Below, one piece after another: positions 15,201-36,295 of a stretch of DNA of 37,583 bases. Position 1 is the stretch's first letter. Each line of letters opens with the position of its first letter. A model generated the notes under the pieces. That model did no database searches and was not told where the DNA came from. It saw nothing but the letters and a program-made list of their open reading frames with translations. The position numbers and the translations under genes are program-made. This stretch comes from a virus: IMG/VR virus record IMGVR_UViG_3300027974_000008; one strand, given 5' to 3'.

Positions 15201-15791
15201 TTCCCAAATACGCTTGGTGCTGTCTCAAGAGCCATGAGCGATTCATTACCAGAGAAAATAAAAATTAAGGATATTGAGGGTGAAGATACAGCAGAAAGAA
15301 CGCTAAATTTATTTGGCGAAGTCCTCAAGAGAAAGATTCCTGGCTATGCAGAGGATTTGCCAAAAAAGATTGATATATGGGGAAGGGAAATACCGCAGAC
15401 ACCAGAGGGTGCTGATCCAGTAATGTACAACTTCTTTGATTTCACCAAGTCAAGGGAAGCGACATACGATAAAACCACCTTGGCAATTTACAAGCTATTC
15501 AAGGAAACTGAAAATGGAGATGTGATACCTCCGAAGCCTTTAGAACAATTTATGATTGGCAACGAAAAGTATAGGCTATCTCCAGAGTTGTATGAAAAAT
15601 ACTCAAAGATAAGAGGCCGAGCCAACCGCGCTGCTGCTGAAGCATTGCTTGGTGATGATGGCTTCAAAAGGCTTGGAAGCGAGGATAAGGTAAGGGCGTT
15701 AAAAAGTGCGTATTCTCAAGTTGGTAGTGACGCAAGAAAAGAGTTTTTGATTCGCAATGAGTTAAGAATTAAGCGAGGCGAGAAGCAATGA
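12213..15791 (+). CDS. Large internal virion / DNA-ejection protein (T7 gp16-like position)
   Basis: At 1192 aa this is the largest ORF. It comes last in the core-protein series and is followed by a muralytic gene. I recognised no catalytic motif. Confidence 0.5.
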   Translation: MAIEPELEFVPEQEQDLEFAPLSQEEAGNLTKADYLASGGAPEDVISPEREAVLQRETQRQLQAGATPQQASIEAGKAVDAMGTIRRPDGTIAEGYKPTAQALAEGIIETPAIPAVKEAQRLGIETVSSGTDKATGVGFAIGKNKDGKVVRFEADKDGNVDSFELEPEEPSRLGAIARTVASQVIPATTGAVAAETAAALTPGGILPKLATGAIAGIGGFIAGQKGQEAAGKALLGPERMARISEVLQRDVEKYPITTTAASILTPTGGGLAGLARGVAEGFTGKVAPAARAVAPAVMPSIESTSAAARVLQELKQAPRAVGAVAPKSEQAVAKADVAPVELPIELPATPKGIGYRQAGVKMVKDPFLNREVREQLAKSEDIKYAKFGQKALQDALANESDDVVRGIFESGTAPQKVVANAELINRASKQNDVKSLIDLAKTRIKLPTEAAQTVAAMRTLPSATQNGYLATLSVFLDKNGRTLTQPLLIKARKLFKLQARTRSTYETLAETARNTLDDVDIQRAIQAEKRFIESAFRFQNFESRLVPKKFFAETLPTVIQGNLLAPLSLVTNLWSNAVSSLPRAIGRQGAFISQEVARAFKKSVGMPVAERTVSSPISLAGARRVGETVKAFVRGGGEGLAGLKRGISAEGLLSGEKIRGFQPAQAFRQFWTGSGLAQPVLNGWKGLGQAGLDRARLAAETVLGVPPETMLRLLQLGDTPFRRMAQSRLLAESAQLAGQTGKAISVATRLPSAEALGKIEQEAAEAVFQQDTPLSRAALSVSNMFGLGNRVGLARTLGKTIIPYAKTPANVIDEMLDYSLPGYALVTKGIPAMQAKDARGVHMAIGKTLTSLTIGAVAKTLSDAGVIGGSAEDSEKTRDIQYKTLPPRTINLSALERFAEGDSTDLQPGDRVMNLEKMGIVGGMLATWNEASKATDKGEFISPEFLTALVPETLSFAMNQSFLKGTNSLLSAMLDGKRDRMDKWIANYFGTVSSIAFPNTLGAVSRAMSDSLPEKIKIKDIEGEDTAERTLNLFGEVLKRKIPGYAEDLPKKIDIWGREIPQTPEGADPVMYNFFDFTKSREATYDKTTLAIYKLFKETENGDVIPPKPLEQFMIGNEKYRLSPELYEKYSKIRGRANRAAAEALLGDDGFKRLGSEDKVRALKSAYSQVGSDARKEFLIRNELRIKRGEKQ

Positions 15792-16555
15792 GATTTTCCA
15801 TAAACCCATCCAAAGATGTTTCATTGAGAAACGATATGGTGGCTAGGGAGCTTACTGGAACTGGATACGAGCCAGTGCCAGAAGAGGTGAGAAGGATCGC
15901 TCCAATTGAGAAGGCCAGAGAATACGCCAAGCAAATGCCCCAAGTAACTCCAGAACAGCCAACACTTGACTTTATAGAGGAACAACAACCTATGCAAACA
16001 AAACCAGAACAAGATGCGCTACAAACAGCAGCGTTAAAGACAATTGATTTCGAGGCAAGGAAGGACAAGCAGGGCAACGTGCAAGTCTATAAATTGCCAG
16101 CAGGAGATATGGGTGGTAATTTTGAGGTTGCTGGTATTAACGACAAATATCATCCAGATGCCTTCAAAAGAATCTCATCGCTCCCAGCACAACAAAGAGC
16201 GCAGGCTGCGGCGCAGTACGTCAAGGAGTACACCAGCCCATTCGTCTCAAAGCTTCCAGAAGCAGTCCAGCCATTCGCGCAGGATCTTGCTTTTAATCGC
16301 GGGATGGGCGGTGCAACGAAGTACATCCAGCAAGGATTGAATACTCTAGGGCAGAAGGTGGCTGTTGACGGAGGATTAGGTCCAAAGACATTGCAGGCAA
16401 TCAACCAAGTTGAGCCAAAGGCGTTAATGCGTGCGGCAAGCCAAGCCCAGCTTGAGGACGAATACCGAATGGCTGAACGCAATCCAGCCAGAAAAAAGTT
16501 TATCGGTGGACTTGAAAGCAGAATACGAAATAGGCTCGCAATATTTGGAGCTTAA
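15788..16555 (+). CDS. GH108-like / PG_binding_3-like peptidoglycan hydrolase (virion-associated lysin or endolysin)
   Basis: 255 aa. DFEARKD...MGGNFEVAGIN...LPEAVQPFAQDLAFNRGMGGATKYIQQGLN...VAVDGGLGPKTLQAINQ follows the GH108 N-domain plus PG_binding_3 pattern. It is ATGA-coupled to the 1192-aa gene. Confidence 0.6.
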   Translation: MRFSINPSKDVSLRNDMVARELTGTGYEPVPEEVRRIAPIEKAREYAKQMPQVTPEQPTLDFIEEQQPMQTKPEQDALQTAALKTIDFEARKDKQGNVQVYKLPAGDMGGNFEVAGINDKYHPDAFKRISSLPAQQRAQAAAQYVKEYTSPFVSKLPEAVQPFAQDLAFNRGMGGATKYIQQGLNTLGQKVAVDGGLGPKTLQAINQVEPKALMRAASQAQLEDEYRMAERNPARKKFIGGLESRIRNRLAIFGA

Positions 16556-17569: not shown

Positions 17570-18031
17570 ATGGGGAAAATCAATAGTCGAGCCAAGGGCG
17601 CAGCGGGTGAGAGAGAATTAGCGAATTACTTGCGGGAGCAGGGCTGGCAGAAGGCTCGCCGTAGCCAACAGTTCGCAGGCAATCCAGAGGGCGGTAGCGG
17701 TGATGTAGTCTGCGAGAATTTTCCCTTCCATATCGAGGGCAAGCGATGCCAAGCACTCAAGCCCGAAGAGTGGATGGAGCAATCTAAGAGGGATTGTCCG
17801 AAGGGCAAGATCCCATCAGTATTCTTCCGCCGTAACGGACGCAAAGAGTGGCTAGTCATAATGACCGCCGACAGCGTGTGTGAATTAGCTCGACAGATCG
17901 CGCCTGCAAATGTGAAGATTGAATATGTACCCAGCAATCCTATGTCAACCACGGTTGGTGCTGGATTTTGGGTACACAATCAAGAAGAACTTACCCCATA
18001 CATACAACCAAAACTAAACCCAAATAAATAA
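17570..18031 (+). CDS. Hjc-like Holliday junction resolvase / PD-(D/E)XK nuclease
   Basis: 153 aa. KGAAGERELANYLREQGW...SGDVV...HIEGKR fits the archaeal-Hjc-type KG..fEREl..., D, E-x-K arrangement. Confidence 0.55.
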   Translation: MGKINSRAKGAAGERELANYLREQGWQKARRSQQFAGNPEGGSGDVVCENFPFHIEGKRCQALKPEEWMEQSKRDCPKGKIPSVFFRRNGRKEWLVIMTADSVCELARQIAPANVKIEYVPSNPMSTTVGAGFWVHNQEELTPYIQPKLNPNK

Positions 18032-18044
18032 AGGAGATACTACA

Positions 18045-18686
18045 ATGGCATTAACCATAAGTGAGTCGCAGAAGATGGAACGCAAGTTGCCCGAAGCTGG
18101 TGCAACCGTAGGCGTTCTTTACAGCCTAGTTGACCTAGGCCACCAGAAGACCAACTGGGACAACCAAGAGAAGTGGACACCTAAAGTCCGTTTGACCTTT
18201 GAGTTGCCCGATCAAACCGATGAGTTTGAAGTCGAGGAGAATGGCAAACGCACCATAGTCCAAAAGCCGATGGTCGTTAGTATTGAGCAGACCCGCAGCC
18301 TTGGTGAGAAGGCAAGCTTGCGGAAACTGCTTGAGCAGTGGAGAGGCCAGACCTTCACATCCAAGGAACTCCAGGCATTCAGCTTGAAGAACCTACTTGG
18401 CAAGCCAGCCATGCTGACGCTGATCCACAAGACCAGCCAGCAGGGTCGGCAGTATTGCGCCATCGCAGGTGCATCCAAACTCCCAAAGGGTATGAAAGCA
18501 CCAGCTACCACTACCAACGATCAGTTGTACTACGAGATCGAACAGGGTGAGGCTGGTCAGTTCAACGATATGCCCGATTGGTTGCAGGAGAAGATCCGTG
18601 CATCCAAGGAGTTTGCTACCGCTGCTGGCAAGTCCACGGCCACTAAGGTCGAGGTGGACGCAGACGGCAACCAAGTGCCATTCTAG
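18045..18686 (+). CDS. DUF669-like putative ssDNA-binding protein
   Basis: 213 aa, RBS aaaggagatactacaATG. The N-terminal pattern (LPEAGATVGVLYSLVDLG) and its position next to an exonuclease resemble DUF669 proteins. This is from memory only. Confidence 0.35.
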   Translation: MALTISESQKMERKLPEAGATVGVLYSLVDLGHQKTNWDNQEKWTPKVRLTFELPDQTDEFEVEENGKRTIVQKPMVVSIEQTRSLGEKASLRKLLEQWRGQTFTSKELQAFSLKNLLGKPAMLTLIHKTSQQGRQYCAIAGASKLPKGMKAPATTTNDQLYYEIEQGEAGQFNDMPDWLQEKIRASKEFATAAGKSTATKVEVDADGNQVPF

Positions 18687-18691
18687 GTTGT

Positions 18692-19510
18692 ATGGCTCTT
18701 ACAATCACAGCGAAAGAGCCTACCAATTCCCGTCTGGTCGCTACTGACCAGGCGGGACATTGGTACACAGCCGAGGGTGAATCCGCCCACGTTGTGATTG
18801 GCAAGAACGGAAAAGAAAGAAACACAACCGTAGCCGATGCGCGCCAGATGGGATTGTACCCATCCGTAACCAGCGTGCTTGGCATTATGGATAAGCCGCA
18901 ATTGACGGCGTGGAAGATTGAGCAGGCCATTATGTCTTCGCTCACACTTCCGAAGGAGGAAAATGAAACGCTCGAAACCTACGCTCGAAGAGTGGTTAAG
19001 GACTCTAAAGAGTCAACAACGAAGGCCGCTGAACACGGCACGAAAATGCACACGGAAATGGAGAACATCCTACTTGGAAGAGAAGTATCCAACGATGAAA
19101 CACTTGCTCCATACATCAAAACATTCAGCGAGTGGGCAGAAAAGAATGTCGAGAAAACGTACTGGTGCGAAAAGGGTCTTGTCGGCGCAGGCTATGCGGG
19201 AAGGTGTGATGCCTACGTCAAGCTACGCGGTGTTGGTGACGCTATCATCGACCTAAAGAATCGTAAGGTAAATCCTAAGTACGATCCTTTCTACGATACG
19301 GATTGCGCCCAGCTTTGGGCATACAGAGCCGCAAGCGAGAATCCTAGGTGCGCCTGCGTGTCGGTTGTCCTAGCGTCAAATGATGCTACCAAGCTGATGA
19401 CGAAGGTGTGGGACGAAGACGAACTCTATCAAGCTGGTATTGCCTTCTGTGCAATGCAGAAAGTCTGGTCTTGGGTCAAGGGCTACACGCCTCCTGGGAT
19501 GAAATTATGA
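18692..19510 (+). CDS. PD-(D/E)XK (RecB/Cas4-like) exonuclease
   Basis: 272 aa. Motifs are HGTKMHTEMENIL, GRCDAYVKL...AIIDLKNRK (D...D-x-K) and QLWAYRAA (Q..Y). Confidence 0.6.
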   Translation: MALTITAKEPTNSRLVATDQAGHWYTAEGESAHVVIGKNGKERNTTVADARQMGLYPSVTSVLGIMDKPQLTAWKIEQAIMSSLTLPKEENETLETYARRVVKDSKESTTKAAEHGTKMHTEMENILLGREVSNDETLAPYIKTFSEWAEKNVEKTYWCEKGLVGAGYAGRCDAYVKLRGVGDAIIDLKNRKVNPKYDPFYDTDCAQLWAYRAASENPRCACVSVVLASNDATKLMTKVWDEDELYQAGIAFCAMQKVWSWVKGYTPPGMKL

Positions 19511-19578
19511 TCGACCCAGCAGATGTCTTATGGCTAGAAGGATTACTGGACGAATTCTATAGGAGGCTTGCAAAATGA
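19507..19578 (+). CDS. Possible 23-aa coupling micro-ORF
   Basis: MIDPADVLWLEGLLDEFYRRLAK*. It has ATGA overlaps with both the upstream stop (19508-19510) and the downstream start (19575). Confidence 0.25.
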   Translation: MIDPADVLWLEGLLDEFYRRLAK

Positions 19579-19871
19579 CTGCACCAACAATCCAAGAGAT
19601 GGGTAACGCCGCGCAGGAGATAGTCTGGCGCGTGATGGGCAAAGGATCGGACAAGTCTGGTTATGGCGATTGGTTGCTGAAGGATAGGCCGACTCACGAT
19701 TACCATATTGCGCGTGCTGTTCGTCACCTAGCTACAGCGCAGATGCAGTTGCACAAGTCATCGCCTTGTCCCGACAATAACGGCGAAACAAGTATTGACC
19801 ACCTAGAGCGTGCGCTGGTACGATGCCTGTTCACGTTGGCACAAATAAAGAAAGAGGTAACAAGACTATGA
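19575..19871 (+). CDS. DUF5664-like protein (all-alpha, MazG-related NTP pyrophosphohydrolase N-domain-like)
   Basis: 98 aa. SGYGDW...HIARAVRHLATAQ...GETSIDHLERALVRCLFTL resembles the KYG..nW...A..RH.....D.esG..HLahA..nllfl pattern as I recall it. Confidence 0.35.
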   Translation: MTAPTIQEMGNAAQEIVWRVMGKGSDKSGYGDWLLKDRPTHDYHIARAVRHLATAQMQLHKSSPCPDNNGETSIDHLERALVRCLFTLAQIKKEVTRL

Positions 19872-20140
19872 TTATGGAAGATGTAAGTGTTGATTTTGAG
19901 TTTAACGGAGAAAAATACACTGCGTATGGCAACGCAGAGATTGACACGATTACCGAGGATATTGGTCCAGTTGGCTATAGGGAACATTACTTTGCAGAGG
20001 TGGTCAACAATGTGACCATGTCAAAGATTGAAATCTCAACTGCTACTGAGGACATAAAGAATCCAAGCAAGGAATTACTGGAAAAGGCTGATGACCTTTT
20101 GTCCATTCAGGCAACAGAAGATTTTGACGCTGGCAAATGA
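19868..20140 (+). CDS. Acidic hypothetical protein (90 aa)
   Basis: Track ORF 19823-20140. The ATG at 19868 forms an ATGA overlap with the upstream stop. Confidence 0.5.
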   Translation: MIMEDVSVDFEFNGEKYTAYGNAEIDTITEDIGPVGYREHYFAEVVNNVTMSKIEISTATEDIKNPSKELLEKADDLLSIQATEDFDAGK

Positions 20141-20313
20141 AATTGGCTCTGTCATGGCTGCTCTACTTTTTGGGTGACATAATAAGTCGTACGCTTTTGC
20201 GTACGGGTCTTGGATACGGACTATACAAGACGCTGATGCTTTGGTCGGTAGAACTGGATGACAAGTTTAATGTGTGGAAAGAAGTTAAACCTAGCGGAAG
20301 GGGCAAAAAATGA
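20137..20313 (+). CDS. Small membrane protein (58 aa)
   Basis: Not in the track. MKLALSWLLYFLGDIISRTLLRTGLGYGLYKTLMLWSVELDDKF... It has ATGA overlaps at both ends. Confidence 0.45.
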   Translation: MKLALSWLLYFLGDIISRTLLRTGLGYGLYKTLMLWSVELDDKFNVWKEVKPSGRGKK

Positions 20314-20975
20314 AACAAGCAATGGTAACTCAATCGTTTGGTGAGGACTGGCAAAAGATTCTGGATCTGACTAGGCCACGCATGGAGGCGTACTGCAAGC
20401 GTCACAACTGCGACTTCATTCTAATCGACAAACCCCTAACCCATCCAATGCAGTATTCTAAATCTGCCATTGGAAACATCATGGCCACTAAGGGCTATGA
20501 CCAAGTTACATTCGTTGACGCTGATGTTTTGATTACAGCCGATTGCCCCAAGCTTTCCGATGACGCTGGGGTGTTCTGCGCCTTTGATGAAGGGGCTTAT
20601 CTGGATCGCAAGCCAGAGATGGTGAAGCTGGCTGGAGCTTTCGGCGGGATGATCGAGCCTAAGTTCTACGTCAATACTGGCGTGTTCGTAGTTCACACTA
20701 AGGCCGTGGGTATCTTGTCGATGCCCCCAATCGGCCTGCACCCTAATCACTTCGCCGAGCAGACCTGGCTCAACGTCATGGCGCACTTGTGGAACATCCC
20801 GCTGACTGAGCTTGACCCATCCTTTAATTGCATGACGAGCGTGGAGTCGCACTTTGGTTTAGACCGCTACAAGGACGCAATGATTATTCATTACGCAGGG
20901 CAATCAAACGATCTGGTTAAGTTAGCTAACCAGATCAAAGAAGACGAAGCGAAGCTGGTGGGGTTGGGTAGGTGA
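20310..20975 (+). CDS. GT-A fold glycosyltransferase, GT8-like
   Basis: 221 aa. It has the DxD motif in VTFVDADVLI, plus FYVNTGVFVV, AEQTWLNV and IIHYAG, paralleling the GT8 (RfaI/RfaJ-type) motifs YLDaD, NsGv, DQd.LN and H..G. Confidence 0.55.
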   Translation: MKQAMVTQSFGEDWQKILDLTRPRMEAYCKRHNCDFILIDKPLTHPMQYSKSAIGNIMATKGYDQVTFVDADVLITADCPKLSDDAGVFCAFDEGAYLDRKPEMVKLAGAFGGMIEPKFYVNTGVFVVHTKAVGILSMPPIGLHPNHFAEQTWLNVMAHLWNIPLTELDPSFNCMTSVESHFGLDRYKDAMIIHYAGQSNDLVKLANQIKEDEAKLVGLGR

Positions 20976-21298
20976 GGTCCACGCACCTTTGTCGTGGTGA
21001 TTATGACGAGAGGTTGCAGCAGTTGGCTGGAGAGGTTGCGCTGCAAGCCATCCGTGATCTGCGGATGTTACGCAAGCGAGGGATGGTTAGGGGCATGAAG
21101 ATTATTAAGGATCACCAAGGCGTGCCACTCAACGATGCGCTGGAGTACAAGAACTCCCATGAGGTGCAGAAGCTACTGCGAGATTTTAAGAACGGGACGG
21201 TTGGCTGGTGGTGCAGAGCCAGCGGAGTAAGGATCGACAATCGGACGTTACTGCGCAAACTACAGGAGAATGACTATGCTTTGCCTACTGGAGCTTAA
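20972..21298 (+). CDS. Hypothetical protein
   Basis: 108 aa with a GTG start overlapping the upstream stop (GTGA). Confidence 0.5.
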   Translation: MRSTHLCRGDYDERLQQLAGEVALQAIRDLRMLRKRGMVRGMKIIKDHQGVPLNDALEYKNSHEVQKLLRDFKNGTVGWWCRASGVRIDNRTLLRKLQENDYALPTGA

Positions 21299-21422
21299 AG
21301 ACATCGTTTGGGTAATCAGTTGGTTTATTCTTTACAGTTGGCTGATTCTTTCGATAATCTACTGCGCTGGCTTTATCATCTTAAAGCTGATTGATTACAT
21401 AAGAAAGGAACTGGATCTATGA
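21276..21422 (+). CDS. Small transmembrane protein (48 aa)
   Basis: Not in the track. AGGAG lies 7 nt upstream. MLCLLELKDIVWVISWFILYSWLILSIIYCAGFIILKLIDYI... It has an ATGA overlap with the next gene. Confidence 0.45.
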   Translation: MLCLLELKDIVWVISWFILYSWLILSIIYCAGFIILKLIDYIRKELDL

Positions 21423-21619
21423 GGAAAAGAAAAGGTAAGAGTATTAAGCTGGTTAAGACCGAGGAGTACAAAGCAGTAAAAATCTTTGTCAATGTGGACG
21501 ATGATCTTTACGAGGCTTTGGCCGAAGCTGGCAAGCAACACATTCTCAAAGACAAGACGGCTTGCTTTGAGTACGCATTAAACAAGGCATTACTGGAACT
21601 TTGCGAGGAAGTCAAATGA
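21419..21619 (+). CDS. Hypothetical protein
   Basis: 66 aa, coupled at both ends. Confidence 0.5.
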   Translation: MRKRKGKSIKLVKTEEYKAVKIFVNVDDDLYEALAEAGKQHILKDKTACFEYALNKALLELCEEVK

Positions 21620-22182
21620 GCGAGTTTAAGCAGAAGGTATTAACCGCAGCAGTTGACCGCTACGTCTTAACAAAGACACAGTGCGAGATGCTGCGCCAGG
21701 ATGCTGAGATCATTGGCATGAAGCGTGCGCCTGTTCTTGCAAAGGATGGCGTTACACAAAAAGTATCTCGTACAAGAACCTGCTCATCGTGCTGGATTCC
21801 GTATGCAAAGCATCATAACTGGATCTACAACATTATGCGCGAGATTACGGAAGGCATCAATGCCGAGCAATGGCGATTCGACATCCAAGGCATCCAACAG
21901 TTGCAGGTGCTTCGATATAATCCATTCCAGCGTTTCAAGTGGCACTTTGATACTTATACTGGCTCTGATCGCAAGCTGACAGCAGTGGTAAATCTTTCCG
22001 ATCCATCCGAATACCTTGGTGGTGGACTTCAAGTTAAGGCAGACATTGAGAACGTAAAGTTTATCCGCGAGCAAGGAGCAGGCTGTTGGTTTCCATCCTA
22101 CTTAGAGCATAGAGCGCGCGCGCCAATATGGGGTACACGCTGGGTGTTGGTGGCTTGGTTTACTGGACCTGCTTGGAAATGA
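21616..22182 (+). CDS. 2OG-Fe(II) oxygenase (prolyl-4-hydroxylase / PKHD-type)
   Basis: Track ORF 21601-22182. ATG at 21616 is ATGA-coupled. It has the HxD motif in KWHFDT, then RKLTAVVNLSDPSEYLGGGLQV, a distal His in YLEHRARA, and RWVLVAWF. Confidence 0.7.
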   Translation: MSEFKQKVLTAAVDRYVLTKTQCEMLRQDAEIIGMKRAPVLAKDGVTQKVSRTRTCSSCWIPYAKHHNWIYNIMREITEGINAEQWRFDIQGIQQLQVLRYNPFQRFKWHFDTYTGSDRKLTAVVNLSDPSEYLGGGLQVKADIENVKFIREQGAGCWFPSYLEHRARAPIWGTRWVLVAWFTGPAWK

Positions 22183-22769
22183 TCCACGCTGCCAATCTGC
22201 CTCGCCACTTGTACGTCAAGTGCGATATGGAGTTTGTGTCTGACGGCGAGAAGCAGGGCATAGAAGATGTTGTTTGGTTTGGCCTAACAGCAATTCCTGG
22301 CCGAGCTTGGGGATGTACAGTTATGCTCAAGTGCGGTGCGTTGTACCGAGGCTTGCCACTACACGCTCTGGCTCATGGCGAGATTGCAATTATGGATTGG
22401 GACATTAACGATGCGCAACGCTGGGATTGTTTTGGATGGAACTTCACGACAATTGAGTACGACTATCTGATGGGGTTGTCCTGCAAGGTTTGGATTGCCA
22501 ATAGAAAAACATGGGAAGTTGGTCGCTATCTATTCACAGCCGAGCCATACGGAGATGGGTTCTCTATGTCGCCAAGCCAAACCAAGTCACACCATTTTAT
22601 TGCGCTTAACAATGGACGCATCACGGCAGTTCCAGGTAATAATGTGCTTTGGCGCGAATCAAGTTTCACCACTCAATCCGAAAAGCCTAAATGGTTGCGG
22701 ACGCAATCGCAAGTATGGAATGGAGAAGAAGCCACATGGGATGATGTGGTTGGTGAAGAAACAGCATGA
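22179..22769 (+). CDS. Conserved-looking hypothetical protein
   Basis: Track ORF 22128-22769. ATG at 22179 forms an ATGA overlap. 196 aa, Trp-rich, no recognised motif. Confidence 0.5.
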   Translation: MIHAANLPRHLYVKCDMEFVSDGEKQGIEDVVWFGLTAIPGRAWGCTVMLKCGALYRGLPLHALAHGEIAIMDWDINDAQRWDCFGWNFTTIEYDYLMGLSCKVWIANRKTWEVGRYLFTAEPYGDGFSMSPSQTKSHHFIALNNGRITAVPGNNVLWRESSFTTQSEKPKWLRTQSQVWNGEEATWDDVVGEETA

Positions 22770-22984
22770 TCCAACTCAATCCAGAACTATGGATGATGAC
22801 ACCCAAGGGTGAAGGATTGGCCTTCATCGTTACGGACTATGGGATGGATCATAACAAGATATTCACAGTAATGCTAAACACTGGAGAGATACTTGACTTT
22901 GACCTGCGCGATTGTCGCAGATGCGAGAACCCAAGCTTCGGGGTACAAGCACCATCAGTGCCTAATCCCTATTACAACATATAA
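22766..22984 (+). CDS. Hypothetical protein
   Basis: 72 aa, ATGA-coupled. Confidence 0.5.
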   Translation: MIQLNPELWMMTPKGEGLAFIVTDYGMDHNKIFTVMLNTGEILDFDLRDCRRCENPSFGVQAPSVPNPYYNI

Positions 22985-22996
22985 GGAGAATAGAAT

Positions 22997-23179
22997 ATGC
23001 TAGGCAAAGACGTATCAAAGAATATGCACGAGTTGGCGATGGACAATAAGAAGAAGGGCAAAGAGCGTGGAGCAGGCGGTAAGCCTCGCTCACGCCAGCA
23101 GATGATTGCGATAGCACTCTCTGCTGCTGGGAAGAGCAATAAATCGCCTCGTAAGTTTCGGATGCGATCTGGTTCTTGA
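22997..23179 (+). CDS. Small basic protein
   Basis: 60 aa, RBS ataaggagaatagaatATG. It contains RSRQQMIAIALSAAGKS. Confidence 0.5.
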   Translation: MLGKDVSKNMHELAMDNKKKGKERGAGGKPRSRQQMIAIALSAAGKSNKSPRKFRMRSGS

Positions 23180-23358
23180 TGCAAGTCGAGGCTAGAGATC
23201 GCCTCAAGTGGGCGCGCGAGATCCTTTCAATTGCACGCAATAAGCTTGTGATTGAGAGGGATCGCGCGACTCACGGACACGCAATAGATATGATCCAGAT
23301 AATCACGATGGTGGATGCTGCAAGCTTGGTGTGCAAGGAAGTGGCAGGTGAAGAATGA
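23176..23358 (+). CDS. Hypothetical protein
   Basis: 60 aa, coupled. Confidence 0.45.
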   Translation: MMQVEARDRLKWAREILSIARNKLVIERDRATHGHAIDMIQIITMVDAASLVCKEVAGEE

Positions 23359-23630
23359 GCATACGAGAAGACATCCTTGACCAGTTCGGTGATGATGCCG
23401 AGACGATGTTGTTCGCTGACGGATTTGATGACGCGATCATCGGGGTTGGAAACAAGTTTGGTGATCAGCTTTGCGCTATTTATGATGCCGACAAAGTGAT
23501 TGACATTCTTATGAAAGAAGGAATGGATTATGCCGAGGCACTAGAACACTTTGATTTTAATATTGCAGGAGCTTATGTAGGTGAGCAGACTCCGATCTTC
23601 ATGCACAAAATAGAAAGGCAGGCCAAATGA
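23355..23630 (+). CDS. Hypothetical protein
   Basis: 91 aa, coupled, acidic. Confidence 0.5.
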   Translation: MSIREDILDQFGDDAETMLFADGFDDAIIGVGNKFGDQLCAIYDADKVIDILMKEGMDYAEALEHFDFNIAGAYVGEQTPIFMHKIERQAK

Positions 23631-24772
23631 AACTATGGACAAATAACACCAACGCAATTCACAAAGTCGATGACAATATGCTCTACCCGCGCACTACCTA
23701 TGTGCTGCCCGATGAGCTAACTGGACCAATCTGGGACGATTCAATCCCTTGCCCACACAAGATCAAGCCTTACTACAAGGGGCGTGCGGCTGGTGGCGCA
23801 ACAGCCGTCTACCGCGCTGGCGCAATTGGTGACGCGATCATCGCTACTGCCTTCGTCAACTACTTGGTGCAAGAATCGGGTGGGGTTGTGGAGGTTTACG
23901 CACCCGCACGCAACCTGCCTCTCTACGCTGGGCTGGGTGCAAAGCTGTGGCCGTTGCCATCCTCGCTGGAAGCTTGGGATTCTTTTGATGCACACCTACC
24001 TACTGACGATTTGTTCAGCGGGCAGGTAGGCAACACGAAGTTAGGCACTGGTCCTGGCAACTGCTACCAGAGGATCTACGAGTGGATGGGTGTGTGGGAT
24101 GAAAAGACGATGGCTAAGTACTGCAAGCCAGTCCTGCATCTCATAGAGCCAGATCACGAAGAGCTAAAGGCGATGGGCAAGTGGCCGTTGCCTAGCCCGT
24201 TCTTTGCTTACCACGTTAGCAGTTCTGGTCCTACCCGCACCTACCCGCCAACGATGGGGCAGGAGGCGGTGCTGGCGTTGCTTGAGGCTTATCCCAAGCA
24301 TCACGCTGTCATCATTGGGCTGGATAACTCAAACAACTTCAAGGTGGATCATCCACGAGTGATTGACCTATTCAACTGCACCAAGACTGTACGCTCGCTG
24401 TTCCCGATTATCAGCGGGGCTGACTTTGTTGTTGCTCCAGATAGCAGCGTCAATCATATGGCTGCTGGGTTGGATACGCCTTGCATTTCATTATGGGGAA
24501 GCTATCATCCAGATTGGAGAGTTAAGTATTACCCAAGGTCATATCCATTATATGCGCCCGAAGTATGTCCGCACGCTCCATGCGCTCCTCATGCTGGACT
24601 GCCACAATCCAAGTGTAAGGACGCATCAAATAAAACAAATAGAACTCAGTTTTGGTGCAACGCCCTAAGAAACATATCGGCAGATATGATTGTTGGGGCA
24701 GCCAAGAAAGTATTAGAAGATAATGAAAAACAAGAATTGCCCACACTGCAAACAAATAAAGCCAATATCTGA
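23627..24772 (+). CDS. GT9-like glycosyltransferase (heptosyltransferase family) with a C-terminal 4-Cys cluster
   Basis: 381 aa. RAGAIGDAIIATAFVNYL and FVVAPDSSVNHMAAGLDTPCISLWG match the GT9 N-terminal R..alGD and C-terminal DSg..HlAaA.g.P...lfG signatures. It also has CPHAPCAPHAGLPQSKCKDASNKTNRTQFWC, i.e. C-x4-C-x10-C-x13-C. Confidence 0.6.
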   Translation: MKLWTNNTNAIHKVDDNMLYPRTTYVLPDELTGPIWDDSIPCPHKIKPYYKGRAAGGATAVYRAGAIGDAIIATAFVNYLVQESGGVVEVYAPARNLPLYAGLGAKLWPLPSSLEAWDSFDAHLPTDDLFSGQVGNTKLGTGPGNCYQRIYEWMGVWDEKTMAKYCKPVLHLIEPDHEELKAMGKWPLPSPFFAYHVSSSGPTRTYPPTMGQEAVLALLEAYPKHHAVIIGLDNSNNFKVDHPRVIDLFNCTKTVRSLFPIISGADFVVAPDSSVNHMAAGLDTPCISLWGSYHPDWRVKYYPRSYPLYAPEVCPHAPCAPHAGLPQSKCKDASNKTNRTQFWCNALRNISADMIVGAAKKVLEDNEKQELPTLQTNKANI

Positions 24773-25343
24773 CTTCTCTAAAAGAAGCGATTGCAAGCTT
24801 GGTTTGATGTCATGGTGTAGACCATGCAATAGGGGTAAGGTCAGGAAATATAGACTAAATAACAAGCAAAAGTGTTATGCAAATATGCTTAAATGGAGAG
24901 GAAAAAATAAATCAAAGTTATTGGCTATACAGAAAAGATACAGATCAAACAACCCACTAAACTTGCGGTCAACTAAAATGGTTTATGAGGCTAGATCAAA
25001 GTCATTAATAAAAAACTTGCCGTTTAACATTGATTACAAATATGTTCATAGTCTGTGTAGAAATGGCAAATGTGCCATAACTGGAATTGAGTTTAAAACT
25101 ACAGGCGGGAAGAACCCTTACTCTCCCAGCCTTGACAGGATAGTTCCTGAGCTGGGATATGTAAGGGGAAATGTAAGGGTAATACTTTGGTCATTAAATG
25201 CCTTCAAAAATAAATGGTCTGATTCTGAAATTTATCCTATTGCAAAACAATTTTGTAAGTCATATGAAGAAAGTCTTACCAATCCAGCGGATGGTACGCA
25301 GGGAGATCCTGCGTCTGGTGTCCTCAGTGTGTCCACCACTTGA
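24723..25343 (+). CDS. HNH-family (degenerate) homing-type endonuclease
   Basis: 206 aa. It has an N-terminal CPHC...CRPC zinc motif and SLDRIVPELGYVRGNVRVILWSLNAFKNKWSD, like phage HNH-type proteins. My hand count gives about 34% G+C over 240 nt, against about 62% in 120 nt of the GT9 gene. It overlaps the GT9 3' end by 50 nt. Confidence 0.5.
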   Translation: MKNKNCPHCKQIKPISDFSKRSDCKLGLMSWCRPCNRGKVRKYRLNNKQKCYANMLKWRGKNKSKLLAIQKRYRSNNPLNLRSTKMVYEARSKSLIKNLPFNIDYKYVHSLCRNGKCAITGIEFKTTGGKNPYSPSLDRIVPELGYVRGNVRVILWSLNAFKNKWSDSEIYPIAKQFCKSYEESLTNPADGTQGDPASGVLSVSTT

Positions 25344-25362
25344 AACAAAGCTGGTTTGATTT

Positions 25363-27321
25363 ATGACAACAGCACAACGACAAGCTGAAGAGATTGTAGG
25401 CCAAGTGGATTGGCAGTCCGAAAACCACGGGCTGTGCAAGTGTCCTGGTGAAGCTGCACATACCAGCCACACTCGCATCCGCGACACAACGGTGTTCGTA
25501 GACGGCGCGCCGACTATCTTTTGCTGGCATACTTCCTGCACGCCGTATCGTGATGAGGCCAACCGCAAGTTGCGCCGAGCTATATCCAGCGATGTTCTTT
25601 ACAAGCCTGTCAACATTATGTCGGGTGGCACAGCCGTGCCGAAGCTGATCATCAAGAAAGACCCGCACTCCGAGGTGCTGGATAGGATCAAGACTGTTGC
25701 TGAGTCAAACAAGCAACGATACCTAACCCACTACAATTGGGAGACTGCGGATATGTTTGAGGAAAGTCCGACCAAGCTGGACGATCCAGCACAGGACTAT
25801 CAGTTGTTCCTATCCCTGTTCAACGCTGTCGATAACATCTGGATAGGTAACGTCACGGATAGCGGAAAGCATCCGCAAAACTTCCGCACAGCTTACGATT
25901 GGAAGAAGCTGGATGAGCCGATTGGGCAGTACACAACTGGCGCGACCTACAAGCAAGGCACAGTCAGTAGGTCCAACGATACGGTTGAGGATAGGATATT
26001 CTTGGTTGTCGAGTCGGATGTACTTACTAAACCACAGATGGGTGCGGTGTTCCAATTGATGCGTGACTTGTTCAAGCTTCGGTTGCGTGCCGTTGTGGAT
26101 ACTGGTGGCAAGAGTTTGCACGGATGGTTTGATATGCCGTCCAACAAGGAATTGATTGACCAGTTGAAAACATTTCTTATTCCGCTTGGATGTGACCCAG
26201 CAACATTCAAGCCTAGTCAGCCAGTTCGGATACCTGGGGCAAAAAGAAACGACAAAATGCAGAGCCTGTTATGGTTCTACAAGGGAGGAAAGATGAATGA
26301 ACTACCGATGATTGAACCCGCCGTGGCCTTAGGTATCAAACCGAAGACGGACGAGTGGCCGCCGATCAAATCTTATGCACAACTTGTTAAGGAAGACTTA
26401 CCCGCACCAGAGACGCTAATTGATGGAATGTTGCACAGAGGCGGGAAGATGTTGTTGGGTGGAGGAAGCAAGGCGTTTAAGAGTTGGAGTCTAATTGACC
26501 TAGCCCTTTCGTTACATGCTGGCGTACCTTGGTGGGGGCAGCAGTGCAAGATGTCGCGGGTGTTGTTCATCAACTTTGAGATCCAAGAGTGGAGTTTTCG
26601 CAATCGGTTAGCAGATGTTATCAAGGCCAAAGGACTAGAAGACAAGGCTGATGACTTTGATGTGTGGACGCTCCGAGGTCACGCTGCCGATCTAACTCTC
26701 ATCCGTCCTATGATCGAGAAGCAGATTGAAGGTAAGGGCTACCAAGCGATCATCCTTGACCCAAACTATATGCTGATGGGTGAGAGGGATGAGAACAGCG
26801 CGGGTGATATGTCATCACTGATGAATGAGTTTGAGTACCTAGCTACCCGCCACAATCTGTCGATCATCCTCTCACACCACTTCAGTAAGGGTAACAAGTC
26901 GGGTGCAGAGTCGATTGACCGCTTCAGTGGGTCGGGCGTGTTCGCCCGTAATCCAGACACGCTGGTCGTTCTGACTGCCCACGAGGAGGATGAGAAGACC
27001 TACACTTGCGACATCACGCTACGCAACTTCCCGCCAGTAGATAGCTTTGTCGTTCAGTGGCATTATCCGCTGTTCCAAGCCAATTTTGCACTCAATCCAG
27101 ATAAGCTAAAGAAGCCAGGCGCACACAAGGCTGTTGACGATAAAAGGTTCTTAACTGAAATGGGTAGCAAGCAGTGGCAGGCGGGTGATTTATGTCGTCA
27201 TATCATTGAAAAGCTGGAAGTATCGGAAAGTACCTTTTATCGCTATCTAAAACGCCTTCACAAAGCCAACAAGATATTGTCTGACAGCGGCTTGTATATT
27301 GCCAATCAGACTGCTTTCTAA
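25363..27321 (+). CDS. Primase (AEP/prim-pol-like) fused to a RecA-fold replicative helicase (AAA_25/RepA-like)
   Basis: 652 aa. It has an N-terminal Cys/His cluster, then FLVVESD, TGGKSLHGWF and VRIPGAKR (prim-pol-like motifs). Next come MLLGGGSKAFKSWSLIDLALSL (Walker A-like) and AIILDPNYML (Walker B-like). Confidence 0.6.
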   Translation: MTTAQRQAEEIVGQVDWQSENHGLCKCPGEAAHTSHTRIRDTTVFVDGAPTIFCWHTSCTPYRDEANRKLRRAISSDVLYKPVNIMSGGTAVPKLIIKKDPHSEVLDRIKTVAESNKQRYLTHYNWETADMFEESPTKLDDPAQDYQLFLSLFNAVDNIWIGNVTDSGKHPQNFRTAYDWKKLDEPIGQYTTGATYKQGTVSRSNDTVEDRIFLVVESDVLTKPQMGAVFQLMRDLFKLRLRAVVDTGGKSLHGWFDMPSNKELIDQLKTFLIPLGCDPATFKPSQPVRIPGAKRNDKMQSLLWFYKGGKMNELPMIEPAVALGIKPKTDEWPPIKSYAQLVKEDLPAPETLIDGMLHRGGKMLLGGGSKAFKSWSLIDLALSLHAGVPWWGQQCKMSRVLFINFEIQEWSFRNRLADVIKAKGLEDKADDFDVWTLRGHAADLTLIRPMIEKQIEGKGYQAIILDPNYMLMGERDENSAGDMSSLMNEFEYLATRHNLSIILSHHFSKGNKSGAESIDRFSGSGVFARNPDTLVVLTAHEEDEKTYTCDITLRNFPPVDSFVVQWHYPLFQANFALNPDKLKKPGAHKAVDDKRFLTEMGSKQWQAGDLCRHIIEKLEVSESTFYRYLKRLHKANKILSDSGLYIANQTAF

Positions 27322-27360
27322 TCCACTTTCAACCCACTATCATTTATAGAGCAGTCAGAC

Positions 27361-27378
27361 TCCTTATATATATAAGGA
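27361..27378. repeat. Perfect 18-bp AT-rich palindrome TCCTTATATATATAAGGA
   Basis: Read directly. It lies in the intergenic region 40 nt after the primase-helicase stop. Confidence 0.9.
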
Positions 27379-27396
27379 ATAATTCGCGAAGGAAAA

Positions 27397-27432
27397 GTAG
27401 GAACAGGACTCCTTAGTCCGTCCTGTCCCTAC
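27397..27432 (+). terminator. Hairpin (13-position stem with one mismatch, 10-nt loop)
   Basis: GTAGGAACAGGAC-tccttagtcc-GTCCTGTCCCTAC, downstream of the long plus-strand operon. Confidence 0.5.
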
Positions 27433-27434
27433 TA

Positions 27435-27455
27435 CGCTACGCTATTTCCGTAGCG
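27435..27455 (+). terminator. Second hairpin (7-bp stem, 7-nt loop) followed by TTCTCC
   Basis: CGCTACG-ctatttc-CGTAGCG read directly. Confidence 0.45.
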
Positions 27456-27475
27456 TTCTCCTAAATGAACAAACA

Positions 27476-27497
27476 GGGCTGGCTGGGCTGGGCAGGG
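27476..27497 (+). other. G-quadruplex-type motif (G3-N6-G3-N2-G3-N2-G3)
   Basis: GGGctggctGGGctGGGcaGGG on the plus strand, intergenic. Confidence 0.4.
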
Positions 27498-27532
27498 CTG
27501 GTTCGCACACGCTCGCACCTGCCGAGACGGAG

Positions 27533-29863: not shown

Positions 29864-30012
29864 TTTGTGCCTTCTCTTTCTTTTCTTATTATCGCACTCC
29901 ATTCCATTCCCTCCCGCTGCGCCCAACGTAGGGCGCGAGCGTAGGAAGTGAACCGCGCGAAAAATTGCCCGACTGAATTATATACGGCGTAGGAGTGTTT
30001 AGTGTTTGCCAT
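29860..30012 (-). CDS. Small protein (50 aa)
   Basis: Track ORF 29860-30081. The internal ATG at 30012 gives MANTKHSYAVYNSVGQFFARF..., just downstream of the preceding stop. Confidence 0.4.
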   Translation of the reverse strand: MANTKHSYAVYNSVGQFFARFTSYARALRWAQREGMEWSAIIRKEREGTK

Positions 30013-30631
30013 ATGCAACAACCTCCTGCTTCCTATCCCAACAAGCGCGGCAGGTAAGGCACTTGTTCCCCTGTTCCGCACTTGGGCAAGTTTTCCCGCT
30101 TGTGACTACAGTTGAAACTTGCACACCCAAACGGCGAGCCAATGGCAACGGCGCAATGCCGTCTATCATATGCGCGGAAAGGCGAATGGTAAGATTCGCA
30201 GGCACTTTCCCGCCGTTATTGATGAACGATTGAAGGATTCCCGCTTCTCTTGTGGGTAACCAATGGCGCACGTTGGGGGTGCGTTCGCATACTTCGACTA
30301 TCTTTTTAAGATGATTCTGATTTTGGATGTCTCCAGAATCGTGCCATCTGAAGAACGAATTACCCTCAGCTTCTATAAGGTAAACTATGCTATCCACCCA
30401 ATCTGAACGGCGCAATGAGCGCAAACGGCGAGCCAAGGCATTGCGCACTGCGGGGTAATTATAATTCCCTTTCATCGCGTAGCACTTGCTACACACCGAA
30501 CCCTCAACCTTTCTCAGCTTCCCGCCTACCTTACAAAGGCTCGCGGGAATTGAGTAGGCGGGACAAGGCATTTTGGAAGGGCGAGAGAATCCACCTCCCG
30601 TTGACGTTGTAGCATGTTCGAATGTCATCAT
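29999..30631 (-). CDS. Cys-rich protein, GP88-family-like (function unknown)
   Basis: Track ORF 29999-30652. ATG at 30631 forms an ATGA overlap. There are two 4-Cys groups (CPAYSIPASLC...CSKCYA and CPSAEQGNKCLTCRAC) and an FRWHDSGD motif. The family name is from memory. Confidence 0.5.
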   Translation of the reverse strand: MMTFEHATTSTGGGFSRPSKMPCPAYSIPASLCKVGGKLRKVEGSVCSKCYAMKGNYNYPAVRNALARRLRSLRRSDWVDSIVYLIEAEGNSFFRWHDSGDIQNQNHLKKIVEVCERTPNVRHWLPTREAGILQSFINNGGKVPANLTIRLSAHMIDGIAPLPLARRLGVQVSTVVTSGKTCPSAEQGNKCLTCRACWDRKQEVVAYGKH

Positions 30632-30864
30632 TTTGTATTCTCCTGTATCCAATTAATAATTTTTGACGCATAGTAAGAAGTAGTTAAGCCGTTTAAAAAC
30701 ATCTCAATATTAAAAAAGTCCAACGGCCAACGGAAAACGCGAATTTCAATAGTCTCTTTTTGCATAGTCGCGTTCCTAATTCTTACTACTGTTTTATCTT
30801 CTGAAACTATCGACTGGATAATTCCACCCGTGCAATACTCGCCAAGTTTAAACGTTTTTTTCAT
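30628..30864 (-). CDS. Hypothetical protein (78 aa)
   Basis: Strong RBS (aaaaggagaacacactATG on the minus strand). Confidence 0.55.
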   Translation of the reverse strand: MKKTFKLGEYCTGGIIQSIVSEDKTVVRIRNATMQKETIEIRVFRWPLDFFNIEMFLNGLTTSYYASKIINWIQENTK

Positions 30865-35768: not shown

Positions 35769-36295
35769 AAGTACCAGTAATGCGGGATGCCTTCCAAGCG
35801 GAAGGCTTAAAACATCTCTGTCAGTGGGCTAACGAACAAGGTGCAACTGGTAAGGCAATTGAGATTGGCGCGTATAGTGGCGAGGGAACAGTAGTCATAG
35901 CCAATCATTTTAAGGAAGTTTTAGCAGTAGATCCGTGGCTTAATGGTTACGATATTAACGATAGGGCAAGCCAGCAATGCCCGATGAAGTTTGTCTTTGA
36001 GGCATTCGAAGAACGCACAACCCCACTTGGCAATGTTCTATACAGCAGAGGTAAAAGCCTAGACGCGCTCCAATTCTTCAAGGATGGTGAACTAGACCTA
36101 ATTTACATAGACGGAGATCACCGCTACGAAGGCGTGCTGGCAGACTTAAATGGGTGGAGGTCCAAGCTTCGGGCTGGCGGGATAATGGCTGGACATGATT
36201 GGAGTTTTAAGTCTGTGCAACAGGCATTGGTTGAGGTATTTAAGGACAAAGAAGCAGTCCTATTTCAAGGCGATTCCTGGGCAATAAAACTATGA
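35765..36295 (+). CDS. Class I SAM-dependent methyltransferase (Methyltransf_24/CmcI-like)
   Basis: 176 aa. It has the motif I-like AIEIGAYSGEGT, plus DLIYIDGDHRYEGVLADL and GGIMAGHDW, typical of this small methyltransferase class. Confidence 0.65.
   Translation: MKVPVMRDAFQAEGLKHLCQWANEQGATGKAIEIGAYSGEGTVVIANHFKEVLAVDPWLNGYDINDRASQQCPMKFVFEAFEERTTPLGNVLYSRGKSLDALQFFKDGELDLIYIDGDHRYEGVLADLNGWRSKLRAGGIMAGHDWSFKSVQQALVEVFKDKEAVLFQGDSWAIKL

Follow-up and report, generated by a model that had tools for sequence, protein, structure and literature searches.

What is modified by the two glycosyltransferases and the 2-oxoglutarate (2OG)/Fe(II) oxygenase whose genes lie close together in the genome of a freshwater phage, and do the three enzymes form one system? 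The question is raised by the IMG/VR virus record IMGVR_UViG_3300027974_000008, a stretch of 37,583 nucleotides (hereafter the window) whose + strand carries a GT8-like glycosyltransferase gene (20310-20975), a prolyl-4-hydroxylase (P4H)-like oxygenase gene (21616-22182) and a GT9-like glycosyltransferase gene (23627-24772). A first-pass annotation had read these genes as an accessory island encoding a single candidate system for protein or glycan modification. Its observation is confirmed, since the three open reading frames (ORFs) lie where it placed them and the GT8-like, P4H/PKHD-type and GT9-type assignments hold by motifs, profiles and Foldseek; its interpretation is partly supported. 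The enzyme classes, their catalytic motifs, the structure of the operon and the conservation and co-occurrence of the genes can be read directly. The GT8-like and GT9-like genes are an obligate pair, core to the lineage. The oxygenase, together with the following gene (p196), is a separable unit from the common gene pool of aquatic phages, and the real accessory content is the cargo interleaved with the enzymes: a C5 cytosine DNA methylase, Mom, an HNH gene and small ORFs. The pair may glycosylate protein, perhaps the Ser/Thr-rich fibre proteins of the phage, with the oxygenase as a separable partner; this is the reading tentatively preferred here.

To follow the co-occurrence of these genes, profiles of four conserved proteins were scanned on every fetched locus, and 53 loci (not all of them independent, see below) span the interval from the GT8-like gene to the primase. 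The GT9-like gene is present in all 53, the oxygenase in 51 and p196 in 43. The two loci lacking the oxygenase, L085 and L086, both have p196. L085 has neither oxygenase nor C5 methylase and keeps both glycosyltransferases, and the same holds for L086, where only Mom is found. Conversely, an integrase-bearing phage (L143), roseophage CRP-810 and hundreds of cyanophage and pelagiphage records have the oxygenase but not these glycosyltransferases. Hence, the relatives do not bear out an obligatory set of three enzymes. The divergent locus L144 has the GT8-like, GT9-like, oxygenase and p196 genes side by side in another order, with an overlap between the two glycosyltransferase genes. For either glycosyltransferase, tblastn finds no homolog in the 50,697 GenBank phage records searched. 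The description as an accessory island fares no better: the GC content of the region 20310-24772 is 0.46-0.51, as in the remaining genome, and the enzymes are conserved through the lineage within an early/replication operon, between recombination genes and the primase-helicase.

The interleaved genes vary more. A C5 cytosine DNA methylase (PF00145, E = 9e-42) occurs in 20 of the 53 loci, Mom in 6 and p91, a small protein encoded just upstream of the GT9-like gene in the window, in 20. The methylase lies between p196 and the GT9-like gene and abuts the latter in L001 (L001:13644-14381). The slot upstream of the GT9-like gene holds either the methylase or p91 (20 loci each), and both only in L136; a p91 homolog is also found directly after the oxygenase in the unrelated phage L143 (L143:10705-10974). 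A homolog of the HNH gene of the window (24723-25343) is found in 3 of the 51 loci tabulated. In L086, the position of the oxygenase is taken by a T5orf172/MUG113 gene (GIY-YIG-like, L086:11651-12175), which suggests that a mobile endonuclease replaced the oxygenase. The earlier statement that there is no DNA methyltransferase is therefore right for the window and wrong for its relatives.

The layout of the genes is that of an operon. From 20137 to 24772 there is a continuous run of + strand ORFs with nine consecutive start/stop overlaps of 4 bases (20310/20313, 20972/20975, 21419/21422, 21616/21619, 22179/22182, 22766/22769, 23176/23179, 23355/23358, and 23627/23630), so that the translational coupling proposed on first reading is real. 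No terminator-like site stands out on the + strand between 16.9 and 28.7 kb, where site counts match those of shuffled sequences, and the scan for promoters and terminators gave counts equal to chance.

The product of 20310-20975 (221 amino acids, isoelectric point (pI) 5.7) holds as a GT8-like GT-A glycosyltransferase, predicted to be of retaining type, on the evidence of its motifs. Its match to PF01501 (E = 2.9e-4, 20.9 bits) is below the cutoff of 24.3, and about half of the listed relatives, which are 56-72% identical to it, have a precomputed match to this family. In 24 relatives, D70-x-D72, N122-x-G124, and H194-x-x-G197 (H194-YAGQS) are invariant, and the motifs are kept in the divergent homolog of L144 as FVDSDVL, YFNTGV, and PHAAG. 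The best match of the family profile in the PDB is the GT8 enzyme LgtC, a weak one (E = 0.12) that extends across the DxD and YFNxGV motifs. The enzyme is probably a hexosyltransferase using UDP-Glc or UDP-Gal. A search of 5.8 billion proteins gave no close cellular homolog, the listed hits being 56-95% identical and those examined lying on phage-type contigs. The median pI of the family is 5.3.

The GT9-like protein (23627-24772, 381 amino acids) scores 29.3 bits with PF01075 (cutoff 22), over residues 258-296 only, i.e., the donor motif of about 40 residues; 43 of 47 homologs have a precomputed match. These 47 hits are all at least 51% identical to it except one at 30%, and no close cellular homolog is among them; a search of IMG/VR with a distant homolog (P0167) found nothing. 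The invariant residues of the family are G68, D69, and D272-S273...H277. D69 belongs to a G-D motif, the seat of the catalytic base in WaaC and TibC, and D272-S273...H277 is a donor motif of the WaaC type, as residues 247-285 of WaaC align with residues 258-296 of the phage protein. Because this Asp and the D-S-x-x-x-H motif are kept, the donor is by default expected to be of the ADP-heptose type.

The AlphaFold2 model of this protein (predicted local distance difference test score, pLDDT, of 75) has WaaF, TibC, a Veillonella GT9 enzyme (3tov), and WaaC as top Foldseek matches. The highest TM-scores (TMq) are those of the TibC chains, with 0.57-0.60, against 0.50 for WaaF and 0.41-0.46 for WaaC. 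TibC is the protein O-heptosyltransferase of enterotoxigenic Escherichia coli, with an N-terminal β-barrel (residues 1-97), a four-stranded non-Rossmann N-lobe, the catalytic base D110, and an iron finger (Cys339, 342, 358, and 370) inserted in the C-lobe (PMC4358343). The phage protein has an N-terminal extension of 57 residues with short predicted strands (pLDDT 45-62), an N-lobe (about 110 residues, pI 4.9) for which four strands are predicted, and, between residues 296 and 339, an insertion of about 36 residues relative to WaaC (285-292). Three cysteines within the insertion (C314, C319, and C330) and one just beyond it (C344) are invariant, as is H316, and the four cysteines may form a metal finger. 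When the protein is aligned with TibC (sequence of tibC in the H10407 chromosome), LGD110 pairs with IGD69, WC358PR with VC314PH, and HKNTDRQFEC370 with NKTNRTQFWC344, and some 37 residues follow each of the aligned Cys segments up to the C-terminus. Of the four cysteines, no more than two align, TibC C358 and C370 with phage C314 and C344. Since the match to TibC is partial, we call the protein a GT9-superfamily enzyme with TibC-like accessory architecture, and not a member of the bacterial autotransporter heptosyltransferase (BAHT) family.

The oxygenase (21616-22182, 188 amino acids, pI 9.4, with an alternative TTG start at 21601) matches PF13640 (E = 8e-11, 43 bits for a cutoff of 27) and phrog_61 (E = 1.8e-24). 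All of its 25 relatives match PF13640, and none of the 25 family members matches Tet_JBP (PF12851, at E <= 0.1) or AlkB families. H110, D112, H165, and R175 are invariant, which gives the HxD...H triad and the 2OG-binding Arg. In the PDB, the family profile matches the P4H of virus PBCV-1 (4.6e-8), the Chlamydomonas P4H, and the PKHD hydroxylase 3dkq. The top 50 Foldseek matches of the AlphaFold2 model (pLDDT 87) are exclusively prolyl and lysyl hydroxylases (one of them a viral lysyl hydroxylase) and one PKHD-type putative oxygenase, with no TET, JBP, or AlkB protein. The best TMq, 0.73, is shared by Pseudomonas putida PPHD in complex with EF-Tu (4iw3) and an entry of PHD2, with others at 0.70-0.72. 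Profiles and model thus support a P4H/PKHD-like enzyme and not a TET/JBP-like one, as first read, and its most likely activity is the hydroxylation of Pro or Lys side chains in a protein. Matches by tblastn were found in 342 GenBank phage records, mostly of cyanophages (26-35% identity among the listed hits). Judging from these relatives, it is a member of a widespread family of aquatic-phage 2OG-Fe(II) oxygenases that usually occurs without these glycosyltransferases.

The oxygenase stop codon is overlapped by the ATG of p196 (22179-22769, + strand, ATGA), a conserved phage protein of 196 amino acids that matches phrog_3704 (E = 1.8e-28) and whose family comprises 493 representative clusters at 50% identity. 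Matches by tblastn occur in 105 phage records (27-43% identity among the listed hits), annotated as PurM or ferredoxin; in records of cyanophages, pelagiphages and Flavobacterium phages the family is labelled "PurM/phosphoribosylaminoimidazole synthetase" or "ferredoxin." Neither the protein nor a profile of 34 sequences has support from the Pfam PurM/AIRS families or from the PDB, and the propagated PurM annotation looks unfounded. In roseophage CRP-810, the gene that follows the oxygenase is unrelated to p196 (hhalign E = 0.44), and the neighboring methyltransferase is unrelated to the one encoded in the window (see following). The 2OG oxygenase and "PurM" families are common among aquatic phages and their function is unproven (PMC3037559, PMC9599517).

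How could these enzymes act? In the preferred reading, protein glycosylation, the GT9-like enzyme would add a first sugar to Ser or Thr of a protein, and the GT8-like enzyme would extend the glycan or add a second one. The best candidates for the acceptor are the fibre-like proteins of the phage itself (3900-6093), rich in Ser/Thr and bearing repeats, with host proteins as the alternative, and the oxygenase, coupled to p196, would hydroxylate a protein side chain, either on the same substrate as the glycosyltransferases or on another. A protein acceptor is favored because TibC gives the highest TM-scores and the four invariant cysteines stand at the position of its iron finger, because the N-lobe of the GT9-like enzyme is four-stranded, as described for TibC, because this acceptor lobe and the GT8-like family are acidic (pI of 4.9 and median pI of 5.3, respectively), and because the fold of the oxygenase matches protein hydroxylases and Ser/Thr-rich candidate substrates are present. 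The existence of the latter had been noted on first reading and is borne out: Ser and Thr make up 36% of the product of 3900-4862 and 32% of that of 4864-6093 (409 amino acids). A tandem repeat of 15 bp within the former ORF (4220-4279, four copies, 95% match) encodes (STATI)n, and the latter has similar imperfect Ser/Thr-rich repeats; neither protein has a Pfam match. A collagen-type substrate was also looked for, and no (G-X-Y)n of at least four repeats exists in any structural ORF, so that the analogy drawn earlier with collagen-type hydroxylation is left without a substrate.

Several points weigh against the protein glycosylation reading. The identity of the donor sugars and, most of all, that of the acceptor are inferred, as is the order in which the enzymes act. 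The best Foldseek E-value of the GT9-like model (2e-13) is with WaaF, an LPS (lipopolysaccharide) enzyme, and not with TibC. Comparison of the family with TibC by hhalign is not significant (E = 0.19), so the likeness rests on Foldseek and on correspondence of positions and motifs; and as the model has a pLDDT of less than 50 across the Cys-rich insertion and over much of the N-terminal extension, it is mainly sequence position that supports the TibC-like features. The β-hairpin thumb of the TibC dodecamer (AHYGQGFVW) is a gap in the phage family, and the phage donor motif is D-S-S-V-N-H, of the WaaC type, where TibC has P-S-G-L-S-W. The enzyme genes lie among replication and recombination genes, near DNA-modification genes in relatives, and not among structural genes. 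Hypermodification of phage DNA is known to involve both GT8-like enzymes and heptose (bioRxiv 10.1101/2023.12.21.572611). Finally, many of the 53 loci are near-identical and not independent, so that the co-occurrence counts overstate the independent evidence. Protein glycosylation by the pair is, with all this, a plausible reading without being a probable one. A more specific version of it is doubtful: that the GT9-like enzyme is a metal-finger phage protein O-heptosyltransferase, a distant cousin of TibC and AAH that transfers host-derived ADP-heptose onto Ser/Thr of the fibres, with the GT8-like enzyme adding a hexose and the P4H-like enzyme hydroxylating the same or a partner protein.

Among the other explanations, remodelling of the host LPS or lipooligosaccharide (LOS) survives best. 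The GT9-like enzyme would add heptose, and the GT8-like enzyme hexose, to the LPS/LOS core during infection. The altered receptor would keep superinfecting phages or released progeny from adsorbing to infected cells or debris; no part in this would fall to the oxygenase. LPS heptosyltransferases are indeed the best sequence matches of the GT9-like enzyme (WaaC and WaaF in the PDB, RfaF/RfaC/RfaQ in NCBIfam), in line with its WaaC-type donor motif and with the Foldseek E-value of WaaF, but the NCBIfam equivalog models score 15-23 bits for cutoffs of 135-569, over the donor motif of about 40 residues only, which does not make it an ortholog of WaaC, WaaF, or WaaQ. Likewise, the nearest solved GT8 relative, LgtC, is a LOS galactosyltransferase, but the 221 residues of the phage enzyme lack its C-terminal membrane-association region. 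LPS heptosyltransferases have basic acceptor lobes, whereas this one is short and acidic and the LPS inner core is anionic, and its Cys4 insertion and N-terminal extension are without counterpart in WaaC. Neither integrase nor repressor is recognised among the window ORFs scanned, which makes classical lysogenic conversion unlikely. The PG_binding_3 domain of the endolysin can be listed in favor of this explanation, yet it says nothing on host LPS. Glycosyltransferases of pelagiphages have been interpreted as LPS-modification genes (PMC9599517). This explanation, put forward already in the first-pass annotation, is weakened by the acidic glycosyltransferases, the TibC-like features of the GT9-like enzyme and the lack of a recognised integrase, and is rather unlikely.

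A takeover of the host is improbable. Here the oxygenase, perhaps with the glycosyltransferases, would modify a host protein (EF-Tu or a ribosomal protein) and reprogram translation or metabolism, and the virion would not be the target. The joint-highest TMq of the oxygenase is to PPHD caught in complex with EF-Tu, the genes belong to the early/replication and not to the late operon, and the oxygenase family occurs in cyanophages, pelagiphages, and roseophages whose virions differ greatly, as expected of a conserved target in the host. However, equal scores are reached by the P4Hs of PBCV-1 and of algae, whose structural substrates are rich in Pro, and nothing ties the glycosyltransferases to a host protein.

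It is also quite unlikely that there is no shared pathway at all and that these are three independent early genes, neighbors only through the conserved gene order of the lineage. Gain and loss of the oxygenase do not follow the glycosyltransferases, cargo without relation to these genes (C5 methylase, Mom, HNH, T5orf172) lies in between, and closely related genomes contribute the majority of the co-occurrence counts. Against this, the glycosyltransferases are never apart in the 53 loci and their genes overlap in L144, where contiguity of the four genes in a new order is hard to explain by inherited synteny alone.

The presence of C5 methylase and Mom genes in relatives meant that DNA modification had to be weighed seriously, and it still ranks low. 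In such a scheme, of the C5-methyltransferase (C5-MT), 5mYOX(TET), and glycosyltransferase style, 5-hydroxymethylcytosine (5hmC) or 5-hydroxymethyluracil in phage DNA would be glycosylated by both glycosyltransferases. The genes do lie between recombination genes and the primase-helicase, the C5 methylase is directly upstream of the GT9-like gene in the 20 relatives that have it, and the oxygenase is basic (pI 9.4). Published phage DNA-glycan pathways include GT8-like (WaaJ/WaaO-like) secondary glycosyltransferases and heptose that can be attached to 5hmC, and only 20-30% of them have a methylase nearby; the enzyme that adds heptose to DNA is, however, T4-βGT-like and not GT9-like (bioRxiv 10.1101/2023.12.21.572611). 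The oxygenase is not a 5mYOX, as the matches to PF13640 and to protein hydroxylases described above indicate, and both glycosyltransferases persist without oxygenase and C5 methylase in L085 and, with only Mom, in L086. The window ORFs scanned gave no match to a C5 methylase, to ThyA or to a dCMP-hydroxymethylase-like protein. Both phage glycosyltransferases are acidic, whereas those that act on DNA expose a positively charged groove. CCGG is purged from the genome (0 sites against 58.6 expected), as it is in close relatives with or without the methylase, so the cytosines are evidently exposed to restriction and not shielded by a blanket modification. The earlier opinion that DNA hypermodification is the less likely option was sound where it relied on the oxygenase not being TET/JBP-like and, where it relied on missing DNA methylases, holds for the window only; all in all, this explanation is very improbable.

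The remaining genes of the operon complete the picture. The first ORF of the run (20137-20313, +) encodes a small hydrophobic protein of 58 amino acids (maximal Kyte-Doolittle mean over 19 residues of 1.44), and shares 4 bases at its stop with the start of the GT8-like gene. It is followed, past the GT8-like gene, by an ORF of 108 amino acids with a GTG start (20972-21298, +) that has no Pfam, PHROG, or PADLOC match, its slot being filled in relatives by ORFs of similar size, and by a predicted single-pass membrane protein of 50 amino acids (21270-21422, +; same measure, 2.31). Small membrane proteins are thus interspersed with the enzymes, as had been noticed before. An ORF of 66 amino acids without significant family match (21419-21619, +) overlaps with its stop the start of the oxygenase. 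Downstream of p196, three small ORFs occupy a variable slot (22766-22984, 22997-23179, and 23176-23358, all +), the first of them without family match; relatives can have the C5 methylase or Mom in this place. p91 (23355-23630, +, 91 amino acids) matches phrog_13182 (E = 7e-31), and its stop overlaps the start of the GT9-like gene. At the other end, the 3′ end of the GT9-like gene is overlapped by 50 bases by a gene for an HNH/endonuclease VII-like homing endonuclease (24723-25343, +; phrog_3322, 8e-31; phrog_1035, 8e-28), which is probably recently inserted mobile cargo outside the system. Just upstream of the GT8-like gene in relatives, there is a conserved gene of 98 codons which corresponds to 19575-19871 in the window, with a weak, below-cutoff match to PF18909 (N-terminal domain of dATP/dGTP diphosphohydrolase, MazZ-like; E = 2.4e-4).

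The window is the complete genome of an abundant, uncultured freshwater tailed phage of about 37.5 kb. Positions 1-127 are identical to 37457-37583, so the genome is circularly assembled or terminally redundant, with about 37,456 bp. It encodes a major head protein (211-1239), tail or internal virion proteins, the endolysin with PG_binding_3 (15788-16555), PD-(D/E)XK nucleases, a RusA-like resolvase, an exonuclease (18692-19510), the primase-helicase (25363-27321), terminase subunits, and a portal; no tRNA is found in the window. Adjoining the portal gene is a class I S-adenosylmethionine (SAM) methyltransferase of the Methyltransf_24 family (35765-36295, +; PF13578, E = 1.4e-17), which the first reading had rightly recognised as a SAM methyltransferase and considered as a possible partner; no link to the system is seen. 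It also matches phrog_2675, labelled "DNA methyltransferase" (4e-16), and weakly TylF, a sugar O-methyltransferase, and PADLOC mad2, of a methylation-associated defence system (7e-5). In the PDB it finds generic methyltransferases only, and NCBIfam is uninformative on its substrate. Apart from this weak mad2 match, PADLOC reports on the window only a generic 2OG model. In a block of small leftward genes in the interval from primase to terminase, 29999-30652 (- strand) encodes a Cys-rich protein of 217 amino acids that matches PF17338 (GP88, E = 1.5e-30).

Gene order is common to several related contigs of 36-42 kb. Single protein clusters of this lineage at 90% identity have up to about 1,000 member sequences, and IMG/VR holds 397 relatives of the GT8-like protein, the best 80 all at least 92% identical. 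Among deposited phages there is no close relative at the DNA level, as megablast of 18000-27500 gives no match, and the nearest large terminases (TerL) are those of Akkermansia (Verrucomicrobia) phages, at 35-38% identity. The hints on the host conflict: a phage-like contig of 8.9 kb (L087, CAUYTX010000021.1), found in a scan of genome contigs and coding for an 82% identical GT9-like protein, is binned as "Gammaproteobacteria bacterium," and a GT8-like protein (P0051) is binned in a Verrucomicrobia metagenome-assembled genome. The absence of CCGG concerns the whole genome (1-37583; expectation from a Markov model), and other tetranucleotides are also depleted (CATG, 0.41; ACGT, 0.55; GGCC, 0.59). 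CCGG loss is common to the close relatives (loci L005-L083), with or without the C5 methylase, and counts are near normal in the more distant L001, L003, and L084-L086. The pattern suggests that, in the host of the sub-lineage, a restriction system cutting CCGG exerts strong selection. A role of the C5 methylase in protecting CCGG was considered and rejected, as the loss is a trait of the sub-lineage, independent of the methylase.

Few unexplained genes of aquatic viromes are as common as those for phage glycosyltransferases and 2OG oxygenases, and here an abundant lineage has fixed a GT8/GT9 pair that lacks homologs in the GenBank phage records searched. If the GT9-like enzyme is TibC-like in function, protein O-heptosylation would extend from bacterial adhesins to viruses, and virion glycan coats would come into view as an influence on adsorption, stability or evasion among freshwater phages and their hosts. 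Should the more specific version given above hold, no earlier tailed phage with a host of Gram-negative type would be known to coat its own virion with a heptose-containing glycan, and part of the ubiquitous 2OG-oxygenase/"PurM" gene set of aquatic phages would gain a first biochemical role. Two negative outcomes are useful in themselves: the cluster resembles a DNA-hypermodification cassette and departs from it in the defining features, and the widespread "PurM" label is unsupported in Pfam and PDB profile searches.

It is instructive to set the cluster beside known systems. The clusters with C5-MT, 5mYOX, and glycosyltransferases share with it a 2OG oxygenase, a GT8-like GT-A enzyme, a second glycosyltransferase, and a setting in DNA metabolism, as well as the C5 methylase often found in the relatives of this phage. 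They differ in that the phage has a P4H-type oxygenase, a GT9-like GT-B enzyme, acidic glycosyltransferases that persist without oxygenase or methylase, and CCGG sites that are avoided, not shielded. With cyanophages and pelagiphages the phage has in common the oxygenase and "PurM" families, but these are here coupled to each other and beside a GT8/GT9 pair that those records lack. Mycobacteriophages encode glycosyltransferases that have been proposed or shown to glycosylate capsid and tail proteins; phage-encoded glycosyltransferases are the common element, whereas their families, the type of host, and the position of the genes differ.

The oxygenase shares with the P4Hs (PBCV-1 vCPH, Chlamydomonas, PPHD, and PHD2) a double-stranded β-helix, the HxD...H triad, and the 2OG-binding Arg, at TM-scores of 0.65-0.73, and with the viral and algal ones a profile E-value of about 5e-8. 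The Skp1 and giant-virus collagen pathways combine hydroxylation with glycosylation, P4H and glycosyltransferases working one after the other. In the phage no collagen-like or (Ser-Pro)n substrate is found, the oxygenase is dispensable for its glycosyltransferases, and hydroxyproline as a sugar acceptor is unsupported. The GT8-like enzyme has the invariant DxD, YxNxGV, and HxxG motifs of GT8 enzymes (LgtC, WaaJ/WaaO, and glycogenin), and compared with LgtC (311 amino acids) it is a minimal domain of 221 amino acids, without the C-terminal membrane-binding or Glyco_transf_8C region.

The GT9-like enzyme stands between two groups. With WaaC and WaaF of family GT9 it has in common a PF01075 match above the cutoff, the G-D Asp, and the D-(S/T)-x-x-x-H motif that binds ADP-heptose, but sequence-level similarity is limited to about 40 residues, and the phage protein adds the extension of 57 residues and the Cys4 insertion of about 36 and has a shorter, acidic N-lobe. 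From TibC it differs by an identity of only about 13-17%, by the cysteine pairs C339/C342 and C319/C330, which do not align, by an extension of 57 residues instead of a barrel of 97, and at the sugar-binding residues P300 and W305, where it has the WaaC-type D272 and H277; R256 and R204 lie near but not at the columns of TibC R286 and K230. Furthermore, the enzyme is phage-encoded, and no autotransporter gene occurs in the window or in the related loci examined, in contrast with BAHT proteins. With these (TibC and AAH), it nevertheless shares a GT9-related GT-B core, the aligned catalytic Asp of the G-D motif (D110 in TibC and D69 in the phage, a feature also common to GT9), what may be extra β-rich sequence ahead of the catalytic domain (predicted at low confidence), and a reduced, four-stranded N-lobe, and with TibC in particular a Cys4 insertion of similar span before the C-terminal helix (C339-C370 in TibC and C314-C344 in the phage), possibly a counterpart of the iron finger, and the motif K-x-T/N-x-R-x-Q-F-x-C.

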